Notes under the pieces: model-generated
Databases searched by the model: none
What the model was told of the DNA's origin: nothing
What the model saw: the letters and a program-made list of their open reading frames with translations, nothing else
Assembly: GCA_036252695.1 (NCBI GenBank)
Contig: GCA_036252695.1_4122.1
DNA from: a phage
DNA: 64,000 nucleotides
Strand: one strand, 5' to 3'
Translations under genes and position numbers: made by a program
Shown: one piece after another, positions 233-22,843 of the stretch
Layout of the letters: each line of letters starts with the position of its first letter
Numbering within the stretch: position 1 is the first letter of the stretch

Positions 233-233
233 T

Positions 234-9549: not shown

Positions 9550-9590
9550 AGATTTTATCAAGACAACATATTAATTTAAGGAATACAAAA

Positions 9591-9914: not shown

Positions 9915-9994
9915 TTAGCTTTACTTTATGCAGATACTTTGATATAGTGTCTGCATAGGGGAAAGAAATTAAATTAACTTAAGAGGAACGTATA

Positions 9995-10264
9995 ATGAAA
10001 AATATCAGTACTTTAATCGATGCAGGTACTCATGTTCGTCGGTCTATGGTTGCAACCAGTACTACAAAACAAGTAGCGAGCGGTTATCTTGTATTTGTGC
10101 ACGATGGTAAACTCCTGGAACGTTCAATCAATTTTGATGTTAAAAACAATTGCCGTTTTATTATCTTTAAGCGTGAACAATATAAAATTGATTTACCAGC
10201 GAAGCCCATAAGCGGGGCGTACAACGTGCAATCATTGTTTGAACGTCAACCATACACCTATTAA
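9995..10264 (+). CDS. hypothetical early protein
   Basis: RBS aagagga; ORF track. Confidence 0.6.
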   Translation: MKNISTLIDAGTHVRRSMVATSTTKQVASGYLVFVHDGKLLERSINFDVKNNCRFIIFKREQYKIDLPAKPISGAYNVQSLFERQPYTY

Positions 10265-10315
10265 TCAAAACATCGTTAGCGGTCGATTTAGGCCGCTTGT
10301 ATTGGGGATTATACC

Positions 10316-10486
10316 ATGAACGTTAATCAAGTACTGAATGAGATCGAAAGCATCATTAAACCAATGAAACGCATTGATGCTATGTTAACACCGGAAGAAT
10401 GCCGCCTTTATGAGCGTTACAGTGTGGAACAAGCCCAGGAAATGGCCCGTATCCGTCCGGTTGCCAGTACTGATAAGGCGGCGTAA
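10316..10486 (+). CDS. small hypothetical protein (56 aa; not in ORF track)
   Basis: RBS tggggatt; stop overlaps next start (TAATATG). Confidence 0.45.
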   Translation: MNVNQVLNEIESIIKPMKRIDAMLTPEECRLYERYSVEQAQEMARIRPVASTDKAA

Positions 10487-10487
10487 T

Positions 10488-10697
10488 ATGCTTACTGTAC
10501 AGGATAAGATCGACATCTTAAAGGTTAATATGTATGTGATTGATGCCGTACCTGGTAAAGTATTTGCATACGATGATTCTAATCGCAGTCCGTTTTATTG
10601 CAGTCATGTAGTTGGATACGTGCCGTTGGCGTATGTTATAGAAAGAGTGGTTGATGCAGCATACAAACATTTTTTAGAAAATAATACTTGCAATTAG
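10488..10697 (+). CDS. hypothetical early protein
   Basis: In-frame ATG at 10488 within ORF 10410..10697; coupled to upstream ORF. Confidence 0.5.
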   Translation: MLTVQDKIDILKVNMYVIDAVPGKVFAYDDSNRSPFYCSHVVGYVPLAYVIERVVDAAYKHFLENNTCN

Positions 10698-10746
10698 TTT
10701 TCAGTACTGTATAATGATTTACATCGAGAGCGGGAATAGTTCCCGC
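10688..10746 (+). promoter_or_regulatory. sigma70 promoter + 5' stem-loop cassette
   Basis: -35 TTGCAA 10688-10693, -10 TATAAT 10710-10715, hairpin gcgggaatagttcccgc. Confidence 0.75.
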
Positions 10747-10767
10747 CTCACTTTTAAGGAATATGAA

Positions 10768-10914
10768 ATGAAAGCATCAAAAAAGAGTAATACTAAGAAA
10801 GCATGTTCACCTTTCGCTGGGGTATTCCCTTTACGTTTTGTTGATGAAGTAGTTTCCTACCCGCCGGGCCTTACTCCTGAGATGGTAGAAAGTTTGCGTA
10901 AATCTAAAAAATAG
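10768..10914 (+). CDS. small hypothetical protein
   Basis: RBS aagga; ATG 10768. Confidence 0.55.
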   Translation: MKASKKSNTKKACSPFAGVFPLRFVDEVVSYPPGLTPEMVESLRKSKK

Positions 10915-10917
10915 TAC

Positions 10918-10974
10918 TTGCAATTAGTTTTTAGTACTGTATAATAGTTTACATGAAGGGGAAAACGTTCCCCT
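10918..10974 (+). promoter_or_regulatory. sigma70 promoter + 5' stem-loop cassette
   Basis: -35 TTGCAA 10918-10923, -10 TATAAT 10940-10945, hairpin aggggaaaacgttcccct. Confidence 0.75.
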
Positions 10975-10996
10975 TACACCTAACGAGGAAAGTATA

Positions 10997-11248
10997 ATGG
11001 AAACAATTTTAATCAAAGACACTGCTACTACTGTAACTTATGATAATGATTGCATTATCCCAGGGACTGAGTACGGCGAACGTGTACCCGTTCAAGTAGA
11101 GATTGATACCACATACATCGACAAGGCTGACCAGTGTATCACTATTGTAATTGGTGAATATCGTTTTCTACCAGAAGAGATCCAAAAATGGCAGAATATG
11201 ATTGACCGTGCGAAATTAGTCGCACAAAGTTTAAAATACAAAGTTTAA
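10997..11248 (+). CDS. hypothetical early protein
   Basis: RBS gaggaa; ORF track. Confidence 0.65.
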   Translation: METILIKDTATTVTYDNDCIIPGTEYGERVPVQVEIDTTYIDKADQCITIVIGEYRFLPEEIQKWQNMIDRAKLVAQSLKYKV

Positions 11249-11256
11249 AATAATAC

Positions 11257-11316
11257 TTGCAATTAGTTTTTAAACGCGTATAATGTTTTACATGAAGGGG
11301 AGAAATGATTCTCCCC
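11257..11316 (+). promoter_or_regulatory. sigma70 promoter + 5' stem-loop cassette
   Basis: -35 TTGCAA 11257-11262, -10 TATAAT 11279-11284, hairpin ggggagaaatgattctcccc. Confidence 0.75.
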
Positions 11317-11334
11317 AATAACAGGAGAAACAAA

Positions 11335-11487
11335 ATGAAACAATACAACGCTCGGTTTGATGTTACTATCGGTAACGGCAAAGGTCAATTCTCTTTCAGT
11401 ACTCGCAAAAGTTATACAGAAAACTTCCTGCGTAATTGTGCACTGACCGCCGCACAAATTAAACATTACTTTCAGGCTAAAAAATGA
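11335..11487 (+). CDS. small hypothetical protein
   Basis: RBS caggag; ATG 11335. Confidence 0.55.
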   Translation: MKQYNARFDVTIGNGKGQFSFSTRKSYTENFLRNCALTAAQIKHYFQAKK

Positions 11488-11573
11488 AATCATTAGCTTA
11501 TTACAGTTCGGCCCTGGTCGGTGCATTGATCGCGGCGTTGTTAGTAACCTATCTATTCTTTATGGTGATTTAA
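11484..11573 (+). CDS. 29-aa hydrophobic micropeptide (putative single transmembrane helix)
   Basis: ATGA overlap with upstream stop; MKSLAYYSSALVGALIAALLVTYLFFMVI. Confidence 0.35.
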   Translation: MKSLAYYSSALVGALIAALLVTYLFFMVI

Positions 11574-11717
11574 ATGAATCCAACAGGTTTAAACTATAAA
11601 AGTTGTTCGGCGTTTACGAAAGCAAATAAAGCGAATGCACGTAAAGCGAAAGTAAAGGAGTACATCAAGCAAGGCATGACGCGAAAGGCGGCGATTCTAA
11701 AAGCTAAAAATAAATGA
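11574..11717 (+). CDS. 47-aa basic micropeptide
   Basis: Starts immediately after stop of preceding micropeptide; Lys-rich. Confidence 0.3.
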   Translation: MNPTGLNYKSCSAFTKANKANARKAKVKEYIKQGMTRKAAILKAKNK

Positions 11718-11910
11718 AAAAAGTGGTTGACTCCGGTCAGCCATTTTGCTATTATATATTCATTGAGAGATAGCTCACTAGCCCACAGGGTGCATAAGTG
11801 TATCTATTATATAAGTATTGAGTACTGAAAACTATTTTAAAAAAGTACTTGCAAACTATCTCAATAAGCGTATAATGTTTTACATCGAAAGGGGAAACGG
11901 TTTCCCCTGG
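11717..11910 (+). repeat. dispersed ~190-bp intergenic module (hairpin/promoter + AGCCCAC box + promoter cassette)
   Basis: Near-identical to 19012-19205; contains TTGACT 11727-11732 / TATTAT 11750-11755 inside a hairpin, and agcccacagggtgc. Confidence 0.85.
11849..11908 (+). promoter_or_regulatory. sigma70 promoter + 5' stem-loop cassette
   Basis: -35 TTGCAA 11849-11854, -10 TATAAT 11871-11876, hairpin aggggaaacggtttcccct. Confidence 0.75.
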
Positions 11911-11927
11911 TAATAAGGAAACAAATC

Positions 11928-12269
11928 ATGACTATCTCAATTGCTCAATCTAACTTTGAAAACGAAATCATCGCCCAGGCACTGCGTTTAAATGATGGTC
12001 GGGCCGAAATTAATTACGGTTTCAATTCAGGCGGTTGTGAAAAATATCAGTACTTTGTAACGGCTGATGGCGGTGTCCTGGGTATCAATACAGTTATTGT
12101 AAACATCCAAAAAATTAATTTCAATGATCCAGACGATAGCCAGTTTTACATCACTGGCGTAGACGTGAACTATGAGGATGACTCACTAACTGATGATCAC
12201 ACTGGCGAGCGGTTAGAAAGTGCATACGGTGAAGATGATTATCAGTCCGGTCCAGAAGATTTCGAATAA
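11928..12269 (+). CDS. hypothetical acidic protein
   Basis: RBS aaggaa; ORF track. Confidence 0.65.
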   Translation: MTISIAQSNFENEIIAQALRLNDGRAEINYGFNSGGCEKYQYFVTADGGVLGINTVIVNIQKINFNDPDDSQFYITGVDVNYEDDSLTDDHTGERLESAYGEDDYQSGPEDFE

Positions 12270-12284
12270 TATAAAAAAAATAGT

Positions 12285-12344
12285 TTGACAATAGATTATA
12301 GTACTGTATAATAGTTTACATCAAGGGGAGAAAAACTTCTCCCC
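12285..12344 (+). promoter_or_regulatory. sigma70 promoter + 5' stem-loop cassette
   Basis: -35 TTGACA 12285-12290, -10 TATAAT 12307-12312, hairpin ggggagaaaaacttctcccc. Confidence 0.75.
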
Positions 12345-12366
12345 ACTAACAGAGAGAGAAAACAAA

Positions 12367-12579
12367 ATGGCTAATATCCGGTCGAAATTAAAAAATGCAA
12401 AACAAGTTTTATTTTCAGATCATGAATACTTTAATAAAGATATTACAGGAGTTACAAGTATCAAGGAAGTAAAAGAAAAAACCGGCGTTTTGTGTGATGT
12501 GCGATTAGTTGGGACATTTGGGAATAACGTGCTATATCGCTGCGGTGATTACAATTTTACACTGACTATCATTAACTAA
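12367..12579 (+). CDS. hypothetical early protein
   Basis: RBS agagaga; ORF track. Confidence 0.6.
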   Translation: MANIRSKLKNAKQVLFSDHEYFNKDITGVTSIKEVKEKTGVLCDVRLVGTFGNNVLYRCGDYNFTLTIIN

Positions 12580-12598
12580 AAATATTATCACAGTACTA

Positions 12599-12627
12599 TT
12601 GACATAGTTTGATAGTACTGACATAAT
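12599..12627 (+). promoter_or_regulatory. sigma70 promoter
   Basis: -35 TTGACA 12599-12604, -10 CATAAT 12622-12627 (third copy of the 9208 module). Confidence 0.7.
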
Positions 12628-12662
12628 AACTTTTATCAACTACACTACTAAGGAATTAAAAA

Positions 12663-12842
12663 ATGGCTATCATCGCAAAAACTGAAATCGTTGGTCTGGA
12701 TTCTATCATCATGACGTTTGAAGATCAAAAAGGTATGTATGTAGTTTCCTATGGTGATTATGTTCGGGAGTATGAAACGGTAGACGAAGCCTTTGAAAGT
12801 TATATTCGCCAGGTGAATAAAGCATACGACGACTACCGCTAA
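12663..12842 (+). CDS. small protein (59 aa; MAII family; not in ORF track)
   Basis: RBS aaggaa; MAIIAKTEIV... resembles 9289 gene N-terminus. Confidence 0.5.
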   Translation: MAIIAKTEIVGLDSIIMTFEDQKGMYVVSYGDYVREYETVDEAFESYIRQVNKAYDDYR

Positions 12843-12869
12843 AATATATTACCAGTACTATTAAATCTA

Positions 12870-12897
12870 TTGACAACGTTTGATAGTACTGTATAAT
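12870..12897 (+). promoter_or_regulatory. sigma70 promoter
   Basis: -35 TTGACA 12870-12875, -10 TATAAT 12892-12897. Confidence 0.7.
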
Positions 12898-12941
12898 AAG
12901 TTTTATAAACAGTAGTTAACTTAACCTAAGAGAGAAATAAA

Positions 12942-13085
12942 ATGATCGCACTGGATTCATTCATCGACGCAGTACTGGCAAAAACTGGCGAGGATCTGAC
13001 CGCAGAACAATACGCGATGATCGAGCAATGTCAGCAAAACGGTAAATCGGTGAAAGATACTGTTAAGATTATCCGCAAGATGTAA
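12942..13085 (+). CDS. small hypothetical protein (47 aa; not in ORF track)
   Basis: RBS aagagaga; terminator-like hairpin follows. Confidence 0.45.
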   Translation: MIALDSFIDAVLAKTGEDLTAEQYAMIEQCQQNGKSVKDTVKIIRKM

Positions 13086-13091
13086 GATTAT

Positions 13092-13125
13092 AGCCCACTG
13101 GTTAACGCTGGTGGGCTTTAATCAT
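13092..13125 (+). terminator. possible intrinsic terminator
   Basis: agcccactgg...ctggtgggct hairpin; weak T tract. Confidence 0.4.
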
Positions 13126-13190
13126 TTACCCTATACAATGCCAGTACTAAACCGTTTATCTCGTTAGAATGCGTTACAGGACGTTTAACA

Positions 13191-13388
13191 ATGATTAGCA
13201 TGAAATCAGTACAAAAACAAATAGAAACATTATCAAAAATTAAACGTAAACAATACTCCTTAGAATATACAATCAATGGTAACTATCATCTAATGAAAGA
13301 AAATAATTTTATAGTCATTGATGAATCATTGCAAATTATTAGTATAGTACTGAAAGCATTAATCAATGACAGAAAAAAATTAAAATAA
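13191..13388 (+). CDS. hypothetical AT-rich small protein
   Basis: ORF track; weak RBS; composition differs from neighbours. Confidence 0.35.
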   Translation: MISMKSVQKQIETLSKIKRKQYSLEYTINGNYHLMKENNFIVIDESLQIISIVLKALINDRKKLK

Positions 13389-13392
13389 TCTA

Positions 13393-13421
13393 TTGACAAT
13401 ATCCTCCAGTACTGGCATAAT
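13393..13421 (+). promoter_or_regulatory. sigma70 promoter with ~300-nt leader
   Basis: -35 TTGACA 13393-13398, -10 CATAAT 13416-13421. Confidence 0.6.
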
Positions 13422-13481
13422 ACTTACATCAAGACGAGAACGTCACTAACCCATAGGGTGCACAAATGTAACTATATAATA

Positions 13482-13558
13482 TCGATCAATAAATGATCAA
13501 AAAAGTACTGGATCAATTTAGCATAAGGAGTATAATTCTGATCAATTCTTGATCAAAG
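13482..13558. repeat. cluster of five GATCAA motifs (Dam-site cluster)
   Basis: GATCAA at 13484, 13495, 13511, 13540, 13551. Confidence 0.7.
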
Positions 13559-13717
13559 GCAATAAACGCAGTTGAATTTATATAGACAATACGAAGGCGT
13601 TACTATCCGTGGTAATGCTGGTGGATATGTAGTATCATGTGGTTTGAATAAGATTAGCACTAGTAGTATTATTGTAGCATTACAGTACTATAGTATTTTT
13701 ATAATGAGGTTAAAATA

Positions 13718-13975
13718 ATGGCTGTAGGATTTGCGAAGGACGGGGCCGAACAAGACGAGATTAACGCAGTGATTCAGGCCGCCGTAAACCACGCTAGAAA
13801 GCAAATTAACGCACAAATAGAATCACTGATACATTGCCTCGACTGTGGCGATAAAATCCCTGAGAATCGCCGCCAGGCTGTTAAGGGATGTAAGTACTGC
13901 ATAACTTGCCAGGAGGATCATGATAGTACTTTTAAAAGAGATCCGCGTAATTGTTGGCATAGATCTATGAGATAA
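13718..13975 (+). CDS. DksA/TraR-family C4 zinc-finger protein
   Basis: CLDCGDKIPENRRQAVKGCKYCITCQ fits the C-x2-C-x17-C-x2-C TraR/DksA zinc-finger pattern. Confidence 0.6.
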   Translation: MAVGFAKDGAEQDEINAVIQAAVNHARKQINAQIESLIHCLDCGDKIPENRRQAVKGCKYCITCQEDHDSTFKRDPRNCWHRSMR

Positions 13976-13981
13976 AAAGTA

Positions 13982-14009
13982 TTGACAGTACTGAAAGATA
14001 GTGTATAAT
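13982..14009 (+). promoter_or_regulatory. sigma70 promoter
   Basis: -35 TTGACA 13982-13987, -10 TATAAT 14004-14009. Confidence 0.7.
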
Positions 14010-14038
14010 ATTTTATATCTTAACTGAGGATAGTAATC

Positions 14039-14395
14039 ATGGGAATACAACATATCACGCGTACTACTGACAATGGTGAGATCACTGGCTATCAAGTACA
14101 GGGCAAAGTAGCACAATTGCAGTACTGGTTTGAAAAACGTGGAATCATTGCACCGGATCTTGATTATGACCGTGTAGCGTTTATTGATTCTCTTTATGTT
14201 GATCCTGATAGTCGGGGCAATGGTGAAGGTAACGAATTAATGAATGCCTTTATCGATGCCGCCGATGATTCAGATTGTATCATCTTAGAATGCGATACGG
14301 GAGAAGATAACGCCTTTAATCTTAAAGAATGGTACGAAGGTTTTGGATTCGAGGTACTGATCGATAGTGAATATCCTATCATGATTTTATCATAG
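14039..14395 (+). CDS. putative small GNAT-family acetyltransferase
   Basis: RGNGEGNELM (motif A-like R-G-x-G-x-G) and NAFNLKEWYEGFGF (motif B-like); 118 aa. Confidence 0.45.
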   Translation: MGIQHITRTTDNGEITGYQVQGKVAQLQYWFEKRGIIAPDLDYDRVAFIDSLYVDPDSRGNGEGNELMNAFIDAADDSDCIILECDTGEDNAFNLKEWYEGFGFEVLIDSEYPIMILS

Positions 14396-14398
14396 TAC

Positions 14399-14466
14399 TT
14401 GCATTTAGTTTTCAGTACTGTTATAGTACTTACATCAAGGGGAAACGTCTTCCCCTACTAAGAGGA
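14399..14466 (+). promoter_or_regulatory. sigma70 promoter + 5' stem-loop cassette
   Basis: -35 TTGCAT 14399-14404, -10 TTATAG 14421-14426, hairpin aggggaaacgtcttcccct. Confidence 0.6.
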
Positions 14467-14473
14467 AATGAAA

Positions 14474-14662
14474 ATGGAAAACTTATCAAGTATTTTAGTA
14501 CAAGATGATTTCGGTAATCCTGGAAGTGCTATCATAGTTCGGGGCAATAAAGCAACGTTTGTTCTTGCTGGTGGGCCAGTACAGCGTAGCATTAAAAATA
14601 ATGCTGTTACCATTAATAATGTACGCTATCGCTTAGATAAAGAATTAATTAAAAATATGTAA
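14474..14662 (+). CDS. small hypothetical protein
   Basis: RBS aagagga 8 nt upstream of ATG 14474. Confidence 0.55.
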   Translation: MENLSSILVQDDFGNPGSAIIVRGNKATFVLAGGPVQRSIKNNAVTINNVRYRLDKELIKNM

Positions 14663-14687
14663 TATTAACTCAATAGGAAAACGATAA

Positions 14688-15011
14688 ATGTATATTCACA
14701 CTACTATCACAAAAGAAGTCCGTTGTCAATTCGAAAGTATCCCAGGTGTATGTTTCATTACAGGCACTTTCTCACCTGGTGACCGTGATAATCCAGTACT
14801 GTTACAATTACGCCATCCATCATGGGATAAAGCATTTGATCTACCGTTGAATGAATTCGCAACTACTGCTGAAAAGTACATTAAAAATATTCGCGAGAAT
14901 GATCGACTATTCATTAATGCTTTCAGTGATTCCGCGTTAAGCGAGATTCATGCGGTACTAGTTGCAATCATGGAATCAATGCAGAAAACTAAATTCAAAC
15001 AAGGTGAATAA
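14688..15011 (+). CDS. hypothetical early protein
   Basis: RBS aggaaaa; ORF track. Confidence 0.6.
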   Translation: MYIHTTITKEVRCQFESIPGVCFITGTFSPGDRDNPVLLQLRHPSWDKAFDLPLNEFATTAEKYIKNIRENDRLFINAFSDSALSEIHAVLVAIMESMQKTKFKQGE

Positions 15012-15017
15012 AAACTA

Positions 15018-15076
15018 TTGACAATGCAATCCAGTACTGTATAATAAGTTACATGAAGGGGAGAAATGATTCTCCC
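15018..15076 (+). promoter_or_regulatory. sigma70 promoter + 5' stem-loop cassette
   Basis: -35 TTGACA 15018-15023, -10 TATAAT 15040-15045, hairpin ggggagaaatgattctcccc. Confidence 0.75.
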
Positions 15077-15095
15077 CAGTACTGAGGAAAGAAAA

Positions 15096-15308
15096 ATGCA
15101 AGGTCAACTAATCGTTCGTAAATGGTCTGATACTAACGCTAAACCGTGGGATGTACAATACATCGCCCCCAATGGTGAATCCAGATATCAACCAGGTGTA
15201 ACGCATAGTACTGAGCAATTTGCCGCCGCTCACCGTGAACGACTGTTACAATCCATGCAGCAAGGCTTCGGTGAAAAATTCATTCAGGATCATTGGCTGA
15301 AAGATTAA
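15096..15308 (+). CDS. hypothetical early protein
   Basis: RBS gaggaaa; ATG 15096. Confidence 0.6.
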   Translation: MQGQLIVRKWSDTNAKPWDVQYIAPNGESRYQPGVTHSTEQFAAAHRERLLQSMQQGFGEKFIQDHWLKD

Positions 15309-15315
15309 AAAGTAC

Positions 15316-15374
15316 TTGCACAGTACTGAATAAAGTGTATAATGTTTTATATCGAGAGGGGAACTATTCCCCTC
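15316..15374 (+). promoter_or_regulatory. sigma70 promoter + 5' stem-loop cassette
   Basis: -35 TTGCAC 15316-15321, -10 TATAAT 15338-15343, hairpin gaggggaactattcccctc. Confidence 0.7.
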
Positions 15375-15394
15375 CTAACAAAAAGGAAAGTATA

Positions 15395-15568
15395 ATGATC
15401 CAAGTAGAATTATCAGTACTGAAAGATCTATTTTATCGGTTAGGTACTAATGGCGAGTATCCTAAAAGTGATACCGCAAAACTTTTTGTATCACTCGACT
15501 TATGGCAACGCGAACAATTAGTAATGTCGTGGCGTAAAGGTAAAGCAGATCGCGAGGTGAAAGCATGA
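15395..15568 (+). CDS. small hypothetical protein
   Basis: RBS aaggaaa; ATG 15395. Confidence 0.55.
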   Translation: MIQVELSVLKDLFYRLGTNGEYPKSDTAKLFVSLDLWQREQLVMSWRKGKADREVKA

Positions 15569-15714
15569 AAGAATTCTTATTCGAAGTAGTGTTTCAAGGT
15601 GTCGGTAGTAACCAACTGATTCGCTCAAGTGGTTATAATGTTAACCAGGCATGGAATAACATTAAACAAATGTACCCGAACGCTATCACATATCGCAACC
15701 CGAAAGAAGTTTAA
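15565..15714 (+). CDS. small hypothetical protein (49 aa; not in ORF track)
   Basis: ATGA overlap with upstream stop; MKEFLFEVVFQGV... Confidence 0.35.
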   Translation: MKEFLFEVVFQGVGSNQLIRSSGYNVNQAWNNIKQMYPNAITYRNPKEV

Positions 15715-15724
15715 AAATAATTGA

Positions 15725-15900
15725 AAAAGGGATTGACTCCGGTCAATCCCTTTGCTATTATATACGCATAGAAACAAATTAGCCCACCGGGTGCATAAAT
15801 GTATCTATTGTTTGCTGGTGGCTAGTACTATCAAGTACTGAAAACTATTTTTAAAAAAGTACTTGCATTGTACTTAGAATCAAGTATAATGTTTTACATC
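15725..15900 (+). repeat. dispersed ~175-bp intergenic module (copy similar to 20941-21105)
   Basis: Perfect hairpin gggattgactccggtcaatccc with embedded TTGACT/TATTAT; agcccaccgggtgc box. Confidence 0.85.
15864..15890 (+). promoter_or_regulatory. sigma70 promoter (upstream of conserved leader copy 2)
   Basis: -35 TTGCAT 15864-15869, -10 TATAAT 15885-15890. Confidence 0.65.
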
Positions 15901-15976
15901 AGGACGGGGAACGAAATAAGTAACTTCCCGTTAAGTAGTCCAGGAGTAAGACATACGAAAAACTCCCCTGATAAAA
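15897..15976 (+). ncRNA. candidate small RNA / structured leader, copy 2
   Basis: Near-identical to 4922-5000 with a few substitutions; between tandem promoters. Confidence 0.25.
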
Positions 15977-15980
15977 TAGT

Positions 15981-16008
15981 TTGACAATAGAAATTAAACG
16001 AGTATAAT
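15981..16008 (+). promoter_or_regulatory. sigma70 promoter
   Basis: -35 TTGACA 15981-15986, -10 TATAAT 16003-16008. Confidence 0.7.
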
Positions 16009-16040
16009 ACTTACATCAACCACTGATAAGGAAACATAAA

Positions 16041-16316
16041 ATGCGGATTCTACTGACAGCTAACGAAATCGAACAAGTACTGACTACTAACCTGGAAGAC
16101 TGGAAACGTGAAGCAGATATCCAGTCGGTTCAATGGCTTAACGATAAGTTAACGCCGGATGACTTAAGCAAGATTGTAGATCCTCAATTCTACGAAGATA
16201 TCCACGACACCGCGTTAAGCGTCGAGGATGTACTAGATAAGCACTTTATTGATACAGATTTGCAGGTTTACGGTCGTAAAAACTTTATCACTATTCACGA
16301 CATTTACAATACTTAA
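16041..16316 (+). CDS. hypothetical acidic protein
   Basis: RBS aaggaaa; ORF track. Confidence 0.65.
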   Translation: MRILLTANEIEQVLTTNLEDWKREADIQSVQWLNDKLTPDDLSKIVDPQFYEDIHDTALSVEDVLDKHFIDTDLQVYGRKNFITIHDIYNT

Positions 16317-16319
16317 GTA

Positions 16320-16382
16320 TTGACAAAGTATCTTAGTACTGTATAATAGTTTACATCAAGTGAGGGGAAACGGTTCCCCTCC
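16320..16382 (+). promoter_or_regulatory. sigma70 promoter + 5' stem-loop cassette
   Basis: -35 TTGACA 16320-16325, -10 TATAAT 16342-16347, hairpin gaggggaaacggttcccctc; duplicated at 16591. Confidence 0.75.
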
Positions 16383-16404
16383 TAACAAAGAGAGAGAAAT
16401 AAAA

Positions 16405-16587
16405 ATGGCTAAGTGCACTATCTGCAAGAAAGAAATAGTATTAGTTCCAAGTGCCCGTGAACGTGCCGCTCGGTTTGGTGGCAAAGCGTCAGACTATACA
16501 AAAATGTTTACTGCCCATACAGCTTGCCAGGTAGCAAAACGTTCACAAGAAAGCGTAGAATTAATGCGTAAACTTTCCAAAAAATAA
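16405..16587 (+). CDS. small Cys-containing protein (possible zinc ribbon)
   Basis: MAKCTICKKE...HTACQ; RBS agagagaga. Confidence 0.55.
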   Translation: MAKCTICKKEIVLVPSARERAARFGGKASDYTKMFTAHTACQVAKRSQESVELMRKLSKK

Positions 16588-16590
16588 GTA

Positions 16591-16652
16591 TTGACAAAGT
16601 ATCTTAGTACTGTATAATAGTTTACATCAAGTGAGGGGAATGGTTCCCCTCC
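16591..16652 (+). promoter_or_regulatory. sigma70 promoter + 5' stem-loop cassette
   Basis: -35 TTGACA 16591-16596, -10 TATAAT 16613-16618, hairpin gaggggaatggttcccctc. Confidence 0.75.
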
Positions 16653-16674
16653 TAACAAAAAGAGAGAAATTAAA

Positions 16675-16998
16675 ATGACTATGATCCTTACCCAGAAAGT
16701 AGAAATGAAAATTGTAACTTCCTTTGACATTAAAGTTAATCGGTGGACTGATAGCCACGGCAATACTTACCACTCATGCTACGTGTCTGCATTGATTGGT
16801 GACCGCTGGGAAGACCTGGGACATGAAACCTTTACTTACGGTTACGGTACACAAGGCGAATACACGGGCTTGGAGATCATTAAAGAAACCGTTATAGGTT
16901 TCAACCCGAAAGAAAAAGTTATTCACCGCATCGAGGAAGAGATCAACAAAGAAATTACAGTTCGTTACTACGATGTAAAACGTAAGAAAGACATGTAA
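16675..16998 (+). CDS. hypothetical early protein (paralog of 9591..9914)
   Basis: NRWTDSHGNTYHSC...ETFTYGYG...VKRKKDM. Confidence 0.7.
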   Translation: MTMILTQKVEMKIVTSFDIKVNRWTDSHGNTYHSCYVSALIGDRWEDLGHETFTYGYGTQGEYTGLEIIKETVIGFNPKEKVIHRIEEEINKEITVRYYDVKRKKDM

Positions 16999-17020
16999 TA
17001 GAATCCATTTAAAGTACTAT

Positions 17021-17049
17021 TTGACATTGCCCAGATAGTACTTTATAAT
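17021..17049 (+). promoter_or_regulatory. sigma70 promoter
   Basis: -35 TTGACA 17021-17026, 17-nt spacer, -10 TATAAT 17044-17049. Confidence 0.7.
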
Positions 17050-17097
17050 AGACTCTAACTTGTAGTACTAATTAACTTAACTAATAGGATGTACACC

Positions 17098-17493
17098 ATG
17101 ATTACTAAATTCTTCGCTACCCGTGAACAAGCTCGCATCGTTGCCCGTGAAGAAGGTGAAACATTTAAAGACATGGGCAAAGATGCACCGAAAGGACAAC
17201 GCTGGGCGGTACAGTTCAAAGAGATCTCTGATATTGTGAATTCACCTGAACCAGTACTTACTGAAGCAGAACTGAAGAAAGCTCAAGAACTGGCTGAAGT
17301 ACTGAACGCTCAAGATGACTTCTTGAAAGGTTCTGATATTCAAGTACAAGTGAATAGTAATGCATGGACTCACGCGGATCACCTGGCAAACCTTAAGCGT
17401 CCAAGTGAACTGATTCGTAACCAGAAAGAGATTCGTCATGACCGTAAAGGAAACCGTGTAACAGTATACAGTAAACGCCGCCAGGTTATCTAA
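17098..17493 (+). CDS. hypothetical early protein (paralog of 4056..4322)
   Basis: FATREQARIVAREEGETFKDMG...RKGNRVTVY. Confidence 0.65.
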   Translation: MITKFFATREQARIVAREEGETFKDMGKDAPKGQRWAVQFKEISDIVNSPEPVLTEAELKKAQELAEVLNAQDDFLKGSDIQVQVNSNAWTHADHLANLKRPSELIRNQKEIRHDRKGNRVTVYSKRRQVI

Positions 17494-17516
17494 TAACTTT
17501 GCAGTACTAACAACAC

Positions 17517-17542
17517 GGCGGGAACTATTCCCGCCTTTTTTA
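17517..17542 (+). terminator. intrinsic terminator
   Basis: ggcgggaactattcccgcc + ttttttat. Confidence 0.7.
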
Positions 17543-17555
17543 TAGGATAAACAAA

Positions 17556-17810
17556 ATGATTAAGGTTCAACTATCAAACGATAATGTATTACGGGTACAC
17601 TATAAAGCCCCACAGAGAATCATCACAAAGGCCGTACAGCTTGCTAATGAGTTTATTAATGGTAGTCTATTGCCTAGGAAGTTAAGCAACGGGAAACTAC
17701 GTGTTATCGATGTAGACACTAACAATAGAATAGTGATCGAGAGTACTGGAAAAATTAATCTATATGAACACCAACAATACAATAAAAAAATAAAACTAAT
17801 ATCACGTTGA
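17556..17810 (+). CDS. hypothetical protein
   Basis: RBS aggataa; ORF track. Confidence 0.55.
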   Translation: MIKVQLSNDNVLRVHYKAPQRIITKAVQLANEFINGSLLPRKLSNGKLRVIDVDTNNRIVIESTGKINLYEHQQYNKKIKLISR

Positions 17811-17835
17811 CAGTACTCAAATGTTTTAGTATTAT
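17807..17835 (+). promoter_or_regulatory. sigma70 promoter
   Basis: -35 TTGACA 17807-17812, -10 TATTAT 17830-17835; module duplicated at 18088. Confidence 0.65.
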
Positions 17836-17868
17836 GTATCTATACCAACACAGAGAGAGAGAAACAAA

Positions 17869-18087
17869 ATGAAATTATCTAAAATCGAAAAGAAAACTAT
17901 TGATGAAGCAGTGAAGCACGGTTATACCTTTCGTAATGATTCACACTTCACTAGTTTTCAACAGGGAAACCGTACCATCAAAAAACTCATTGATAAAGGT
18001 TTACTCACTAAGGTTGATAACGGGAACGGTGTAGAATATCAACCGACAGAAGACGCATTATCACTAAAGAAATATTCTATTATCTAA
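17869..18087 (+). CDS. hypothetical protein
   Basis: RBS agagagaga; ORF track. Confidence 0.6.
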   Translation: MKLSKIEKKTIDEAVKHGYTFRNDSHFTSFQQGNRTIKKLIDKGLLTKVDNGNGVEYQPTEDALSLKKYSII

Positions 18088-18116
18088 TTGACAGTACTCA
18101 AATGTTTTAGTACTAT
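18088..18116 (+). promoter_or_regulatory. sigma70 promoter
   Basis: -35 TTGACA 18088-18093, -10 TACTAT 18111-18116. Confidence 0.6.
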
Positions 18117-18144
18117 GTACGCATACCAACACGGGGAAAACAAA

Positions 18145-18387
18145 ATGATTACTTTAGAAAAACGTATCAAAGAGACTACAACGCTGGTGGAACTGTTAAC
18201 CGTTCTTAAATGCCGGGTAACTCCATTCAGTACACCGGACTTTATCAACATGGTGGACGTTAACGGTCGATATCGTATTGCGGTCGAACAAGGTACGGCA
18301 AAAGTATTCAGTACTAAAAATACGCGTGAAGTATTCCACGCAGTTCAAGTAAAAAAAGTAGTTGCCATTGATAGTAAAGTACTGTAA
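18145..18387 (+). CDS. hypothetical protein
   Basis: ATG 18145 after acggggaaaacaaa RBS region. Confidence 0.55.
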   Translation: MITLEKRIKETTTLVELLTVLKCRVTPFSTPDFINMVDVNGRYRIAVEQGTAKVFSTKNTREVFHAVQVKKVVAIDSKVL

Positions 18388-18418
18388 TATAGTTTCATTA
18401 ACTCAAGGAGTCAACACA

Positions 18419-19003
18419 ATGCGTAACTATACTAAATTCATCCGTTCACTTCATGCAATGGAAACCAACAAAGAGATCCTTTCAGCTTGTCGGTTAGCTG
18501 GACTGGAGATCGTCGGTGCGGGTTCTTCCCGTATTGTATTCGCTTTAAATGATCGGTTAGTGATTAAGGTCGCGAATTGTGATGCGGGTGTAGAACAAAA
18601 TGAAACTGAATGTAAGGTATGGAATTTTTTAGATTATGACCGTCCGCACCTTAAACAGTACTTTGCTAAAGTGCATATGCATTTATGCGATCCTGATAAT
18701 CTGTTTATTGTTATGGATCGTTTGAGTACTGCAAGCAAAGGCAGTGTAAAGCATGTAAACGCGTGCAATGAGTTAAAGTACAATATTAAACGTAATACGG
18801 TAGAACGCCATCACCATTTCGCTGATGCTCTCAATCACGTTGATGATACATTATCCACACTAACGATAAGAGATATCAGAAAACAGAATATCGGCCAGGA
18901 TCGCAACGGCTTGATTAAAGTACTTGATTACGGTTTAACCCGCAATATCTGGAATCAGTACTATAAAAAACGTGATGTTAACGCGATAACTATAACACGA
19001 TAA
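18419..19003 (+). CDS. putative minimal Ser/Thr protein-kinase-like protein
   Basis: Gly-rich loop GAGSSRIVF, VIKV lysine, catalytic-loop-like IRDIRKQNI, DFG-like LDYG; RBS aaggag. Confidence 0.45.
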   Translation: MRNYTKFIRSLHAMETNKEILSACRLAGLEIVGAGSSRIVFALNDRLVIKVANCDAGVEQNETECKVWNFLDYDRPHLKQYFAKVHMHLCDPDNLFIVMDRLSTASKGSVKHVNACNELKYNIKRNTVERHHHFADALNHVDDTLSTLTIRDIRKQNIGQDRNGLIKVLDYGLTRNIWNQYYKKRDVNAITITR

Positions 19004-19011
19004 AAAAGATT

Positions 19012-19205
19012 AAAAAAGGGATTGACTCCAGTCAGTCCCTTTGCTATTATATATTCATTGAGAGATAACTCACTGACCCATAGGGTGCGGAAGTGTATCT
19101 ATTATATAAGTATTCAGTACTGAAAACTATTTTATAAAAAGTACTTGCAAACTATCTCAATGAGCGTATAATGTTTTATATCGAGAGGGGGAAATGGTTC
19201 TCCCT
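19012..19205 (+). repeat. dispersed ~190-bp intergenic module (near-identical to 11717-11910)
   Basis: Same hairpin/promoter, acccatagggtgcgg box and promoter cassette. Confidence 0.85.
19145..19205 (+). promoter_or_regulatory. sigma70 promoter + 5' stem-loop cassette
   Basis: -35 TTGCAA 19145-19150, -10 TATAAT 19167-19172, hairpin agggggaaatggttctccct. Confidence 0.75.
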
Positions 19206-19227
19206 GGTACTAAAAGGAATCAAGACG

Positions 19228-19449
19228 ATGACTACTATGACATGCGTTCACGCTTCAAATCTTCTGAATGATGCAGCATTTAAAGCAGGTGAAGAATATC
19301 AATGCTATCGGGATGAAAATAAAAAAGTTTTCGTCGTTGATGCTAACGGTTTCCATATTGAATTACAATCCGGCTTCACTGGTGTTGATGGTAAATCAGT
19401 ATGGGGCGTACAGGATGATAACGGTACATATCATTTTAAACGTAATTAA
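19228..19449 (+). CDS. hypothetical early protein
   Basis: RBS aaaagga; ATG 19228. Confidence 0.6.
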   Translation: MTTMTCVHASNLLNDAAFKAGEEYQCYRDENKKVFVVDANGFHIELQSGFTGVDGKSVWGVQDDNGTYHFKRN

Positions 19450-19452
19450 GTA

Positions 19453-19511
19453 TTGACAAAGTATATCAGTACTGTATAATAGTTTACATCAAGGGGAGAA
19501 TAGCTCTCCCC
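19453..19511 (+). promoter_or_regulatory. sigma70 promoter + 5' stem-loop cassette
   Basis: -35 TTGACA 19453-19458, -10 TATAAT 19475-19480, hairpin ggggagaatagctctcccc. Confidence 0.75.
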
Positions 19512-19533
19512 ACCAATAAAAGGAAACAAAATT

Positions 19534-19806
19534 ATGTCCAGCTACTCCGCTACTATGATTATTAAAGATATGAACGGTAATCCTACTTCTGCTGGTGGAT
19601 CATTTGGTAACATTAATTTAGATGGGCGGTTATCAATTGAATCAGCCATCAATGCAGCGAAAGAAGTTTTTAAGAATGAATGTACTGTAAGCAAACTGGA
19701 TTATATGGGCTTCGCTATCGAGAAAACTAATCGTTTTGTGGACTACAAAAAACCACTGATGATTGATACTAACCTGAAAGCAAACGAAGTGGAATACTTA
19801 TTATGA
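19534..19806 (+). CDS. hypothetical early protein
   Basis: RBS aaaggaaa; ORF track. Confidence 0.65.
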   Translation: MSSYSATMIIKDMNGNPTSAGGSFGNINLDGRLSIESAINAAKEVFKNECTVSKLDYMGFAIEKTNRFVDYKKPLMIDTNLKANEVEYLL

Positions 19807-19994
19807 CAGTAGAAGAAGTTAAAAAAGTACTGGCAGTACTACGCTATCATAATCATTGTAAGGTGAAGAATGATCCTGATTATCTTGATTCATCGCTGGA
19901 AGAGGATACACTACAAGCAATAAGCCATATGCAAAAAATGCTTAAGCGTATGACCGAAAAGAACAGGCCGGACTATATCGGAAATAAAATTTAA
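19803..19994 (+). CDS. hypothetical protein
   Basis: ATGA start/stop overlap with upstream gene. Confidence 0.5.
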   Translation: MTVEEVKKVLAVLRYHNHCKVKNDPDYLDSSLEEDTLQAISHMQKMLKRMTEKNRPDYIGNKI

Positions 19995-20001
19995 AAAGTA
20001 C

Positions 20002-20058
20002 TTGCATTGTAAGTAAAACAAAGTATAATGTTTTACATAGGGGGAGATATCCTCCCCC
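20002..20058 (+). promoter_or_regulatory. sigma70 promoter + 5' stem-loop cassette
   Basis: -35 TTGCAT 20002-20007, -10 TATAAT 20024-20029, hairpin gggggagatatcctccccc. Confidence 0.75.
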
Positions 20059-20077
20059 ACTAATAAGGAGTACTAAA

Positions 20078-20302
20078 ATGGCTAACTTTGATGAACTGAT
20101 GCGGGAAGTAGCTACCCTGGCAGAAGAGAAGAAATCATTTGATTCTATCTATAACACCGCTTACAGTGATTCAGTACTGGCATGTACTCAGGATCAAAAA
20201 GATGAACTGATCGCCACCTATCATGAAGCATGGAAGTATTACCGCCAATGGGAGAAAGAAGAAAGCGAGTCTACCATCAACGGCATCAATAATCTAATCT
20301 AA
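20078..20302 (+). CDS. hypothetical acidic protein
   Basis: RBS aaggag; ORF track. Confidence 0.65.
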   Translation: MANFDELMREVATLAEEKKSFDSIYNTAYSDSVLACTQDQKDELIATYHEAWKYYRQWEKEESESTINGINNLI

Positions 20303-20320
20303 AGTTTTATTTCAGTACTA

Positions 20321-20349
20321 TTGACAATGCGTGATAGTACTGATGTAAT
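20321..20349 (+). promoter_or_regulatory. sigma70 promoter
   Basis: -35 TTGACA 20321-20326, -10 TGTAAT 20344-20349. Confidence 0.55.
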
Positions 20350-20377
20350 AACTTTACTAACTACAAGGGGAAACATA

Positions 20378-20635
20378 ATGGAACAGTTCACACAATATCG
20401 GGTAAATCCTCAAGCTATGGCCTACGTAGAAGACCATAAAACATTACCAGTACAGACACCAATCAAAGGCCGTATCTATCGTGCTATGCAGTGGAATAAC
20501 GCCTATAATGGCTATAAAGCGGTAGCGGCTGCAATGTACTTAGGGGATGGCGAATGGTTTGATCCAAATAATCCTGGTGCACTAGATAGTACTGAACAAA
20601 TGACATGGGCCGACTATATCGAAGATATTTCATAA
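20378..20635 (+). CDS. hypothetical protein
   Basis: RBS aagggga; ATG 20378. Confidence 0.6.
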   Translation: MEQFTQYRVNPQAMAYVEDHKTLPVQTPIKGRIYRAMQWNNAYNGYKAVAAAMYLGDGEWFDPNNPGALDSTEQMTWADYIEDIS

Positions 20636-20642
20636 AAACTAT

Positions 20643-20703
20643 TTGACAGTACTACAAGATAATGTATAATGTTTTACATAGAGCGGGGGAATAGTTCTCC
20701 CGC
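20643..20703 (+). promoter_or_regulatory. sigma70 promoter + 5' stem-loop cassette
   Basis: -35 TTGACA 20643-20648, -10 TATAAT 20665-20670, hairpin gcgggggaatagttctcccgc. Confidence 0.75.
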
Positions 20704-20723
20704 ACCTTTAGGAGTAAAACATT

Positions 20724-20924
20724 ATGTCAATCGCTAACGAATTGGTTGCAGTACTGAATGAAGCAAAAGCCAACTGCATCGATGTACAGATCAAAGAGCT
20801 TGGCAATGGCTTGATCGGCTGTACTTGTACAGTGCAAACGGCTACCGATTATCGGGAAGTGGAATCACTCGAATCACTGGTACGGTATATTAAAATCCTG
20901 GTAGAAGATTGGAGAATCATCTAA
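20724..20924 (+). CDS. hypothetical protein
   Basis: RBS taggagt; ORF track. Confidence 0.6.
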   Translation: MSIANELVAVLNEAKANCIDVQIKELGNGLIGCTCTVQTATDYREVESLESLVRYIKILVEDWRII

Positions 20925-20940
20925 CAAAAAAGAATAAAAA

Positions 20941-21105
20941 AAAGGGATTGACTCCGGTCAGTCCCTTTGCTATTATATACGCATAGACAAAAACTAGCCC
21001 ACAGGGTGCAGAGAAGTATCTATAAGATAGTTAATAACGGTGAGTAACTATCTGCTGGTGGATGTAATGCCAGTACTCAAAACTATTTCAAAAAAAGTAT
21101 TGACA
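20941..21105 (+). repeat. dispersed intergenic module (copy similar to 15725-15900)
   Basis: aaagggattgactccggtcagtccctttgctattatatacgcatag + agcccacagggtgc. Confidence 0.85.
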
Positions 21106-21127
21106 AAGTATATCAGTACTGAGATAA
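21100..21127 (+). promoter_or_regulatory. sigma70 promoter
   Basis: -35 TTGACA 21100-21105, -10 GATAAT 21122-21127; module duplicated at 21417. Confidence 0.65.
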
Positions 21128-21182
21128 TGTATCTCGTAGGGCGGCAATAGTGCAGCCCACCTCCAAAAGAGCGAGATATAAA

Positions 21183-21398
21183 ATGGCGTTAACCAAACAA
21201 GAAATTATCGACCGTATCAAAGAGTCAACTGGCTGGTATGTTGGGGACCGTTTAATTGTTAAAGTTCTCGATTATTCAAATAATCCTCTTGCACCGGAAC
21301 CAGTGGCATACAAATTATCCTGGATATCTGCGTTTAGCGGTAAGCGTGAAAGATGTGTGTACTATCCGAACACAGTCGGGCTACAGTTCTGTAAATAA
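21183..21398 (+). CDS. hypothetical protein
   Basis: ATG 21183; ORF track frame. Confidence 0.55.
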   Translation: MALTKQEIIDRIKESTGWYVGDRLIVKVLDYSNNPLAPEPVAYKLSWISAFSGKRERCVYYPNTVGLQFCK

Positions 21399-21416
21399 AT
21401 TTTAATAGAAAAAGTA

Positions 21417-21445
21417 TTGACAAAGTATATCAGTACTGCAATAAT
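21417..21445 (+). promoter_or_regulatory. sigma70 promoter
   Basis: -35 TTGACA 21417-21422, -10 AATAAT 21440-21445. Confidence 0.6.
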
Positions 21446-21498
21446 GTATCTCGTAGGGCGGCAATGGTGCGACGGCCCACAAAGTTAGGAGATTCACC

Positions 21499-21825
21499 AT
21501 GAGTACTTCAATCGCTATCGTTAAAGCTTTCATCCGTACCAATTTCGACCGCATTACTGTTGATGGTAATGATCGGGAAGTAGAATACTCTTTCATTGTT
21601 GCACAAACCGCAAACGGTGCACGCTATATCTTAAACGATAGTGAAGCTAACCACTACTTCTATAATAAAGGATTACACTACATCCCTAGCGAAGTAGTCT
21701 ACAGTAAGATGAATAAGCTGGTAGACAAGATTAACGCTAAAGGTACTATCGATTTACAGTACTGGACCGAAACCGATCCAGAATACGGATCACATCGTTA
21801 CCTGAATCCAGGAATTAAAATGTAA
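21499..21825 (+). CDS. hypothetical protein
   Basis: RBS taggaga; ORF track. Confidence 0.65.
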   Translation: MSTSIAIVKAFIRTNFDRITVDGNDREVEYSFIVAQTANGARYILNDSEANHYFYNKGLHYIPSEVVYSKMNKLVDKINAKGTIDLQYWTETDPEYGSHRYLNPGIKM

Positions 21826-22594: not shown

Positions 22595-22625
22595 TGCGTA
22601 AAGGGATCTAGTACTGATTCAGAAA

Positions 22626-22690
22626 AAAGTCAAGGCGTTTTTAAAATAATGCGTTAAAAAAATGCATAGGTAATCCCTTGACTTTTTTAA
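22626..22690. repeat. inverted repeat at the compositional boundary
   Basis: aaaaagtcaagg 22626.. and reverse complement ccttgacttttt ..22690, ~35-nt loop. Confidence 0.6.
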
Positions 22691-22785
22691 AATAAAAGGG
22701 ATTGGACTATGGCAAAATGCGTAGGGGGCTAAAGGGCGGGTAACCTTAGCGACTTCGATAAAGGGGTATTACGAATAAAATGTTA

Positions 22786-22813
22786 TTGACTTTTTATACA
22801 ATTCATATATTAT
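22786..22813 (+). promoter_or_regulatory. sigma70 promoter at head of the LGTNYQ-family array
   Basis: -35 TTGACT 22786-22791, -10 TATTAT 22808-22813. Confidence 0.55.
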
Positions 22814-22843
22814 ATGATTGATATTATTTTCAAGGGAGTCCCT

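Follow-up and report, generated by a model that had tools for sequence, protein, structure and literature searches.

Sequence-specific cutting by terminase yields exact direct terminal repeats (DTRs), as at the T7-type junction, where the repeat is 160 bp long; Bacillus phage SPO1 has a terminal redundancy of ~13 kb that carries a host-takeover module, and the A1 product of phage T5 is a large protein. The left terminal repeat of T5 (10,139 bp) is a long DTR with the first-expressed genes, transcribed by the host sigma-70 polymerase (10.1101/866236; PMC7472727), and a conserved, repeat-rich non-coding element straddles its inner end (10.1101/866236). For the Rak2-like jumbo phages, reported DTRs measure 20,993 bp in fEgEco12 (PhageTerm, backed by restriction digests; PMC13070987), 20,668 bp in Sharanji (PMC11895373), 19,736 bp in Klebsiella phage fENko-Kae01 (hereafter Kae01; positions 1 to 19736 by PhageTerm; PMC11218385) and 22,456 bp in Pectobacterium phage CBB (read depth and pulsed-field gel electrophoresis; PMC5259590), with a redundancy of ~20 kb in G17 deduced from coverage (PMC6563267). 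Here, we describe a 249-nt gap between genes (positions 22595 to 22843) in a 64,000-nt stretch of phage DNA (contig GCA_036252695.1_4122.1; the window), which very probably is the conserved non-coding junction in which the 21.2-kb DTR of an Asteriusvirus jumbo coliphage has its inner (right-hand) end.

The window phage belongs to Asteriusvirus (121Q/PBECO4-like, Rak2-like), as megablast returned 96–98% identity to 121Q and matches of 86–91% to ~40 Asteriusvirus genomes. One copy of the DTR is present, at positions 1576 to 22746 on the + strand (21,171 bp, ~53 small, spaced genes), and positions 1–1575 match the part of fEgEco12 that leads into its right-hand repeat copy. The order of the window is thus the end of the unique region, a single-copy DTR and the start of the unique region, signifying a collapsed or concatemer form of the genome. 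The repeat is the same element as the Asteriusvirus and Rak2-like DTRs listed above and that of vB_Ec-M-J (21,525 bp): it shares with the Asteriusvirus repeats both ends base for base, the terminal gene, a 152-nt spacing from that gene to the terminus and the cut-site sequence, and differs from the published examples in being single-copy, with unannotated ends.

The right end was located by alignment to relatives whose records carry two copies of the region (G17 and WPEC5 were compared as the reverse complement). On these alignments, position 22746/22747 (...AAGGGCGGGTAACCT/TAGCGAC..., the slash marking the cut) is shown to be homologous, base for base, to the right chromosome end of relatives with mapped ends. 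The sequence ...GGGCGGGTAACCT, which closes at window 22746, is the exact end of six linear GenBank records (CRJP21, G17, E9.1, BF17, WPEC5 and fEgEco12); in fEgEco12, window 22746 is matched by base 20,993 and also by the final base of the record; and in vB_Ec-M-J the GenBank feature 'Direct Terminal Repeats' (1..21525) ends in the homologous intergenic gap, at the base that aligns to 22746. The last gene of the DTR (22385–22594, + strand), which encodes a 69-residue protein of phrog_17833 (function unknown), has its stop codon 152 nt before the terminus in the window and in all six of these linear records, and 145 nt before it in Kae01. Pfam and PHROGs assigned the genes flanking the junction to families of unknown function only.

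The sequence around the cut is conserved well beyond the genus. In the window, the cut-site core AAGGGCGGGTAACCT/TAGC occupies positions 22732–22750 (+ strand), with the right physical terminus after 22746, and its CTTAGC is invariant in 10 of the 10 sequences of an alignment, in which TTGGACTATG is nearly so and the conserved part begins about 175 nt before the cut and ends about 27 nt after it. The arrangement TTGGACTATG, 35 nt, CT/TAGC is found in these ten sequences, from several Rak2-like genera, as the core of a ~200-nt non-coding element around the cut. In Asteriusvirus, Kae01 and CBB alike, exactly 35 nt separate the cut from the 3′ end of its nearly invariant block GATTGGACTATG (22700–22711, + strand; unique in the window). 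The window reads ...GATTGGACTATG-(35 nt ending AAGGGCGGGTAACCT)/TAGCGAC, Kae01 reads ...GATTGGACTATG-(35 nt ending AAGGCCAGTCATGCCT)/TAGCCAC and CBB reads ...TTGCACTATG-(35 nt ending AAGGCCAGTAACGCT)/TAGCGAG; ACTATG therefore lies 35 nt upstream of the cut in all three, with Kae01 ending ...CCT/TAGC and CBB ...GCT/TAGC, and the ends compared in these three genera were mapped independently. A second block, AAATGCATAGGTAATCCCTT (22660–22679, + strand), is identical in CBB and near-identical in other Rak2-like contigs. Scanning IMG/VR with the pattern TTGSACTATG-N20-AAGG-N8-SCTTAGC returned eight contigs, all with the conserved junction region, of which five are near-full-length jumbo-phage genomes (354–378 kb), CBB among them. 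Even the divergent Asteriusviruses JNE01 and Turkey5, with ~70–73% identity at the junction, retain four blocks: AGGGATTGGACTATG, ATGCGTrGGGGG, GGGTAACCTTAGC and the −35 block TATTGACTTTTTATA of a promoter described below.

At the opposite end of the repeat, the left terminus junction GATATCCCACTA/AGTAGGCAGAGGAAGTCTGCC (1564–1596, + strand) is cut at 1575/1576 and has a 6-bp hairpin (GGCAGA and TCTGCC) at its very end. The left end of the DTR aligns to base 1 of the fEgEco12, CRJP21, vB_Ec-M-J and G17 (reverse complement) records, which all begin at the base of window 1576 (AGTAGGCAGAGGAAGTCTGCC; AGTAGGCAGAGG). As at the right end, the left junctions are related across genera: the window has ...TTCAGTACTG-N14-CCCACTA/AGTAGG, and Kae01 and CBB have ...TTCAGTACT..CCTTCCGCTA/TATC (..CCGCTA/TATC). 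Three copies of the palindrome CAGTACTG stand just upstream of the left terminus (1467, 1527 and 1548). The terminus lies in a ~2-kb non-coding region (1233–3214) that contains iterons (GTAATCATAA ×3 at 1387, CAAGATTGCT ×3 at 1486 and ATCAAAAGTA ×2.4 at 1640) and a 16/40-nt repeat array at 2394–2485; the 6-bp hairpin falls on the first bases of the DTR, and Kae01 likewise opens with an 8-bp hairpin. This region could be an origin or a packaging region. Before it, six tandem paralogous genes for proteins of 60–69 residues (starting MHKEYY/MNKEHK..; 47–1232) form the last module of the unique region, and all 14 AGTACT copies of positions 1–1575 are inside these six genes (10.9 per kb of coding sequence).

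Several points weigh against the reading of the junction as the inner DTR end. The termini of the window genome itself are placed by homology only, to six relatives that end at the base aligned to 22746 and four that begin at the base aligned to 1576 (twofold read depth or read-start peaks have been published for G17, Sharanji, fEgEco12, Kae01 and CBB), and the orientation of some GenBank records may have been copied from G17 or fEgEco12 by homology rather than independently measured. One record, BAU.Micro_ELP-22 (OR699282.2), ends 24 nt after the last DTR gene, not 152 nt, and UE-S1 has been reported with an 8.3-kb DTR, a value that the authors of the fEgEco12 study deem misassigned (PMC13070987). 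Between the neighbourhoods of the left and right ends, only AGTACTGATT (found throughout the DTR) and the short core ..CT(A)/TA.. are in common: in a search for a recognition motif common to both termini, AGTACTGATT was the sole shared word of at least 10 nt, and GTAATCA iterons and AATGCGT repeats, tried as terminus-specific motifs, proved to be weakly or merely locally enriched. Terminase is the presumed cutting enzyme and the conserved blocks its putative recognition site, and the division into early and late genes discussed below is a prediction. Finally, the GC excess of the DTR touches all three codon positions.

The inner end of the repeat coincides with a sharp step in base composition. 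The GC content is 0.383 in the DTR (1576–22746) and 0.323 in positions 22747–38000 (0.32–0.335 outside the DTR), and in 250-nt bins it drops from 0.428 to 0.328 across 22750. The maximum-likelihood single GC change-point of the whole window is 22766, and the largest GC step in the 64 kb, with flanks of 1, 2 or 3 kb, is at 22766–22767, within ~20 nt of the repeat's inner end. The original prediction, made from the raw sequence, had claimed an abrupt switch in composition at ~22.6 kb and had named a gradual change in a sliding-window plot as the result that would refute it; by the measures above the step is abrupt, and the claim was not refuted. Its second claim, that promoter-rich DNA on the left gives way to tightly coupled, promoter-poor arrays on the right, is borne out by the counts: on the + strand, perfect (12/12) sigma-70 sites number 11 in the DTR versus 0 in 22747–38000 and sites scoring at least 11/12 number 21 versus 4, the median intergenic gap is 83 nt versus −4 nt, and the coding fraction is 0.66 versus 0.95. 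Left of the cut, spaced genes each have their own consensus sigma-70 promoter; right of it, 27 overlapping paralogues follow a single promoter. The GC contents at codon positions 1, 2 and 3 are 0.48, 0.34 and 0.37 in the DTR versus 0.40, 0.27 and 0.31 in 22747–38000, and as the difference is greatest at positions 1 and 2, it is partly a matter of protein composition. Conservation also differs, with identity to vB_Ec-M-J of 88–94% on the DTR side versus 77–83% in the array, and identity to 121Q of 98% versus 92–94%. By these differences in composition, promoter density, spacing and divergence, the two compartments do meet at a true boundary of modules and of transcriptional architecture, and the interpretation first proposed is partly supported; that the boundary is the inner end of a DTR had been missed.

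A clear GC step and an array side that diverges faster are also what would be expected of a mosaic or horizontal-transfer junction, at which compartments of different origin meet and the step is an amelioration boundary unrelated to the DTR, and indels do cluster here: PBECO4 and BF17 have an insertion, the Salmonella SD phages have a deletion, and phage A4 shows breakpoints of homology. However, the DTR and the array are both syntenic in all Asteriusviruses, Kae01, a phage of a different genus, and other Rak2-like contigs likewise have the DTR followed by the array and a GC step where the DTR ends, and GC also rises on entry into the DTR at its left end. In Kae01, the GC content is 0.373 in the DTR versus 0.334 past its end, the change-point being 159 nt away from that end, and the DTR side is GC-richer by 3–7 points in CBB and in every related contig with at least 2.7 kb of DTR-side flank. 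A mosaic origin of the step therefore carries very little weight with us.

The junction also contains the large inverted repeat that the original prediction had taken as the mark of the boundary, and it is perfect: the left arm AAAAAAGTCAAGG (22623–22635, + strand), an inverted copy of TTGACTTTTT, and the right arm CCTTGACTTTTTT (22676–22688, + strand), a direct copy, are 13 nt long, 100% complementary and separated by 40 nt (the positions first assigned were ~3 nt off). It sits 58–123 nt inside the DTR and 29–94 nt past the stop codon of the last DTR gene. Perfect repeats with arms of at least 13 nt and loops of 3–60 nt number three in the window versus ~0.17 expected from first-order Markov simulations; the count is above chance, yet the arms are rich in A/T runs. 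The 10-mer TTGACTTTTT itself has exactly three copies in the 64 kb versus 0.55 expected, at 22624 (−), 22678 (+) and 22786 (+), the third being the −35 element of the promoter. They lie at −122, −68 and +40 from the cut and span 172 nt around it, and the probability that three random sites fall within 175 nt is ~1e−5.

The placement of the inverted repeat just downstream of the last DTR gene raises the question of pure transcriptional punctuation, in which the repeat is a (bidirectional) intrinsic terminator, the promoter at 22786 opens the next operon and neither has any tie to the genome ends. An A-tract before and a T-tract after the GTCAAGG and CCTTGAC core are consistent with such a role, the repeat forms in both the RNA and DNA minimum-free-energy folds, and a predicted promoter does come after it. 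As a terminator it is nevertheless poor, with a loop of 40 nt, a G+C core stem of only 7 bp, no call in a terminator scan and an RNA fold z-score of only −2.3. Its arms are invariant among close relatives, and so offer no covariation, and they are lost in JNE01 and Turkey5, which keep the cut-site blocks; in other genera, two TTGAC copies occur in direct, not inverted, orientation. The physical DNA end lies 58 nt downstream of the repeat in seven records, although a terminator role could coexist with a terminus. Punctuation unconnected with the genome ends is thus an unlikely account of the junction.

Comparisons between genera bear on what the repeat may do instead. Kae01, CBB and other Rak2-like contigs have one or two copies of TTGACTTTT in equivalent positions, either direct or inverted; as the orientation varies between genera, it is the motif that is conserved and not the hairpin potential. 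The inverted repeat and the third TTGACTTTTT copy could therefore be thought of as binding sites of a terminus-recognising protein (e.g. the small terminase subunit) that would position cleavage at 22746, and the confinement of the only three exact TTGACTTTTT copies of the 64 kb to the surroundings of the cut is in line with this idea. Against it, JNE01 and Turkey5 keep only the downstream copy, TTGAC is also the −35 consensus, such that the copies could be promoter relics, and no equivalent cluster is present at the left terminus, where the nearest sequence, TTGACTTTAT, is at +366. On balance, we regard this role as a tentative possibility. JNE01 and Turkey5 have a different inverted repeat of similar geometry (ACGCAAAAAAAC and GTTTTTATGCGT, with a 41-nt loop), which is suggestive but could be due to chance in A/T-rich DNA. 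The repeat does not, then, mark the boundary in any essential way, as had originally been supposed: it is inside the DTR, is missing from divergent Asteriusviruses and makes a poor terminator. Most likely, it is an accessory protein-binding or weak terminator element that does not define the boundary. Two further ideas about the repeat were rejected. Divergent promoters within it would have no acceptable −10 element at 16–18 nt from TTGACT on either strand (ATTGGA on the + strand, TAGATC on the − strand), and a promoter scan listed nothing within the repeat; and the junction aligned poorly, through short motifs only, with the two-promoter cassette of the DTR (about 11700, 15700, 19000 and 20920), of which it might have been a diverged copy.

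The promoter that follows the inverted repeat, likewise part of the original prediction, stands as a predicted sigma-70-type promoter (22786–22813, + strand) 40 nt outside the DTR, with TTGACT at 22786–22791, a 16-nt spacer and TATTAT at 22808–22813. It scores 10/12 and is followed by a ribosome-binding site (AAGGGAG) and an ATG at 22844; the hexamers, their spacing, the gene downstream and conservation in relatives are all as would be expected of a candidate sigma-70 promoter. Its −35 block TATTGACTTTTTATA is kept in JNE01 and Turkey5, where TAAAAT is read from the alignment 16 nt after the −35 element, and TTGACA-17-TATACT stands beyond the cut of Kae01; Salmonella phage SD-15_S21 lacks the promoter through a deletion. 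It would probably drive the first module of the unique region, a tandem array of 27 paralogous genes for proteins of ~70 residues (22844–28459, + strand; phrog_4148, motif LGTNYQE), nearly all of which overlap by 4 nt. Further members of this family, the function of which is unknown, are found at 29558, 30662 and 30847. The junction varies among relatives: PBECO4 (KC295538.1) and BF17 have an additional 366-nt open reading frame inserted between the cut site and the array, and in the Salmonella SD phages (OR699188.1) the 22786 promoter is lost in a deletion that joins the junction directly to the first gene of the array.

Taken together, the features of the two ends suggest how the repeat might be made and used. 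During packaging, terminase would cut replicating concatemers sequence-specifically at 1575/1576 and 22746/22747, and every virion DNA would thereby carry 1576–22746 at both ends as exact 21-kb repeats. After injection, the host sigma-70 RNA polymerase would transcribe the DTR first, from ~20–40 near-consensus promoters, one per small gene, and the DTR would constitute a host-takeover or early module. Its products include a DksA/TraR-type C4 zinc-finger protein (13718–13975; Pfam E 1e−11), a GNAT acetyltransferase (14039–14395; Pfam E 4e−9) and a weak protein-kinase-like open reading frame (18419–19003; E 1.5e−3, below the Pfam cut-off), the Kae01 counterpart of which is annotated as a putative protein kinase; all three fit a host-takeover role. 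Transcripts of the last DTR gene would either stop inside the junction or run off the DNA at its right end, and the 22786 promoter, present only beside the left copy of the DTR, would restart transcription into the long, translationally coupled array. The compositional step would then arise from the meeting of two modules of different function exactly where the repeat ends.

The exact, sequence-defined ends, with conserved sequence on both sides of the cut, resemble a T7-type junction rather than headful-permuted ends, and conservation on both sides is to be expected if the enzyme reads a concatemer; the repeat is 21 kb long here, not 160 bp. The likeness to SPO1 lies in a long redundancy of many small genes of unknown function with strong early promoters for the host's main sigma factor, although host and lineage differ, and it is a likeness of gene content. 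For completeness, the large terminase of Rak2-like phages has been described as T4-like (PMC5259590).

T5 provides a parallel to a long DTR with host-polymerase promoters, since 11 perfect and 21 near-perfect predicted sigma-70 sites lie on the + strand of the DTR, and it introduces a further alternative: a T5-like injection-stop signal, whereby entry of the DNA would be halted for a time where the DTR has its inner end, only the repeat would enter and be expressed first, and the repeat-rich junction would act in cis as the stop. In T5, the untranslated region across the inner end of the 10.1-kb repeat is conserved, rich in repeats and palindromes and better conserved than the flanking genes, and it holds the stop signal (10.1101/866236); the present DTR, full of sigma-70 promoters, likewise has its end within a conserved non-coding element that contains repeats. 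Against this, the element is ~250 nt long and not ~1.6 kb, and no DnaA boxes (TTWTNCACA) occur at either DTR end (22400–23000 and 1200–3300), whereas T5 has paired boxes in large inverted repeats of a ~1.2–1.6-kb non-coding region. The longest open reading frame of the DTR encodes 203 residues, such that there is no large gene; no dedicated homology search was made for T5 A1 and A2, and Pfam searches of 10 DTR proteins gave only the DksA/TraR, GNAT and weak kinase-like matches. In addition, the DTR is twice as long as that of T5, the virion is that of a myovirus, and Rak2-like phages are not known to inject their DNA in two steps. As the T5-specific features (DnaA boxes, length of the non-coding region and large gene) fail, the junction is not classed as a T5-type injection-stop region, and we consider such a signal highly improbable. 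Equally remote is the notion that the junction (TTGACTTTTT copies, GATTGGACTATG and CCT/TAGC) is, beyond a cut site, also a T5-like entry checkpoint and the 21-kb repeat a separate first-stage genome; if it were so, the GC-richer repeat, with its ~50 genes under sigma-70 promoters, would enter the cell and be expressed ahead of the other 330 kb. The preferred reading therefore remains that of the inner boundary of a packaged terminal repeat, a feature of a known kind (a long-DTR boundary, as in T5 and SPO1) and one already known for this phage group.

Other sequence features were noted in and around the DTR. The palindrome CAGTACTG occurs 68 times in the window versus 0.85 expected (e.g. at 1467, 1527, 1548, 1955, 10702, 15032, 19467, 21114 and 21431), and AGTACT 255 times versus ~21. 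The density is 6.3 per kb in the DTR (11.8 per kb in non-coding DTR), 1.1 per kb in 22747–38000 and 3.5 per kb beyond 38 kb, signifying that it, too, switches at the DTR end. Within DTR promoters, CAGTACTG is found directly before the −10 element (TTGACA-N8-CAGTACTG-TATAAT), overlapping the −35 element (AGTACTTGCA) and again at about −60, a placement that would fit an operator or activator site. It is enriched in Kae01 as well, and a literature search on CAGTACTG in phages produced nothing relevant. Many of its copies in coding regions are supplied by the codons (..CAG TAC TGT..) of another paralogous family, at ~38500–48000, with a motif of the type EE-x-FFQ-x-STVY.

The intergenic regions of the DTR also contain a repeated two-promoter cassette (about 11690–11935, 15696–15925, 18990–19180 and 20910–21190). 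Its first promoter has the −35 element (TTGACT) inside a 12-bp hairpin, AAAGGGATTGACTCCGGTCAGTCCCTTT, which is followed by GCTATTATAT, and the cassette precedes a conserved stretch of ~50 nt (..AGCCCACAGGGTGCATAAGTGTATCT..) that has neither an open reading frame nor an Rfam match and could be a small transcript. Many DTR leaders contain short G+C hairpins (GCGGGAA and TTCCCGC, or GGGGAGA and TCTCCCC) just past the −10 element and predicted start and before the ribosome-binding site (e.g. 3225–3245, 10735–10755, 15050–15075 and 19495–19515), which may serve to stabilise the leaders or as sites for regulators. No Rfam family and no transfer RNA was found anywhere in the 64-kb window.

Our search of the literature on these DTRs (PMC13070987, PMC11895373, PMC5259590, PMC6563267 and PMC11218385) yielded repeat lengths only, and no description of the cut-site motif, the GC island or step, the contrast in promoters and gene spacing or the three-copy TTGACTTTTT cluster. 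To what is known, the present analysis makes modest additions: a cut-site motif whose spacing is fixed across genera, the observation that the repeat end and the sharpest GC step coincide, and the cluster of three TTGACTTTTT copies. It also demonstrates that a physical end of a genome can be recognised in raw sequence from composition alone. The genomes of 121Q, PBECO4, slurp01 and the window phage were, as many Asteriusvirus records, deposited in collapsed or permuted form with the ends absent, and TTGGACTATG-N35-CT/TAGC, together with the left junction ...CCCACTA/AGTAGGCAG, would allow such records to be re-oriented without new sequencing. For the biology of the Rak2-like jumbo phages, the data support exact, sequence-specific formation of the genome ends and, on the evidence of promoters and gene content, support a terminal repeat that would act as a distinct early module driven by the host polymerase. 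The ~200-nt cis element at the inner end of the repeat is conserved more widely than the neighbouring genes and thereby provides a concrete target for experiments on packaging and injection.

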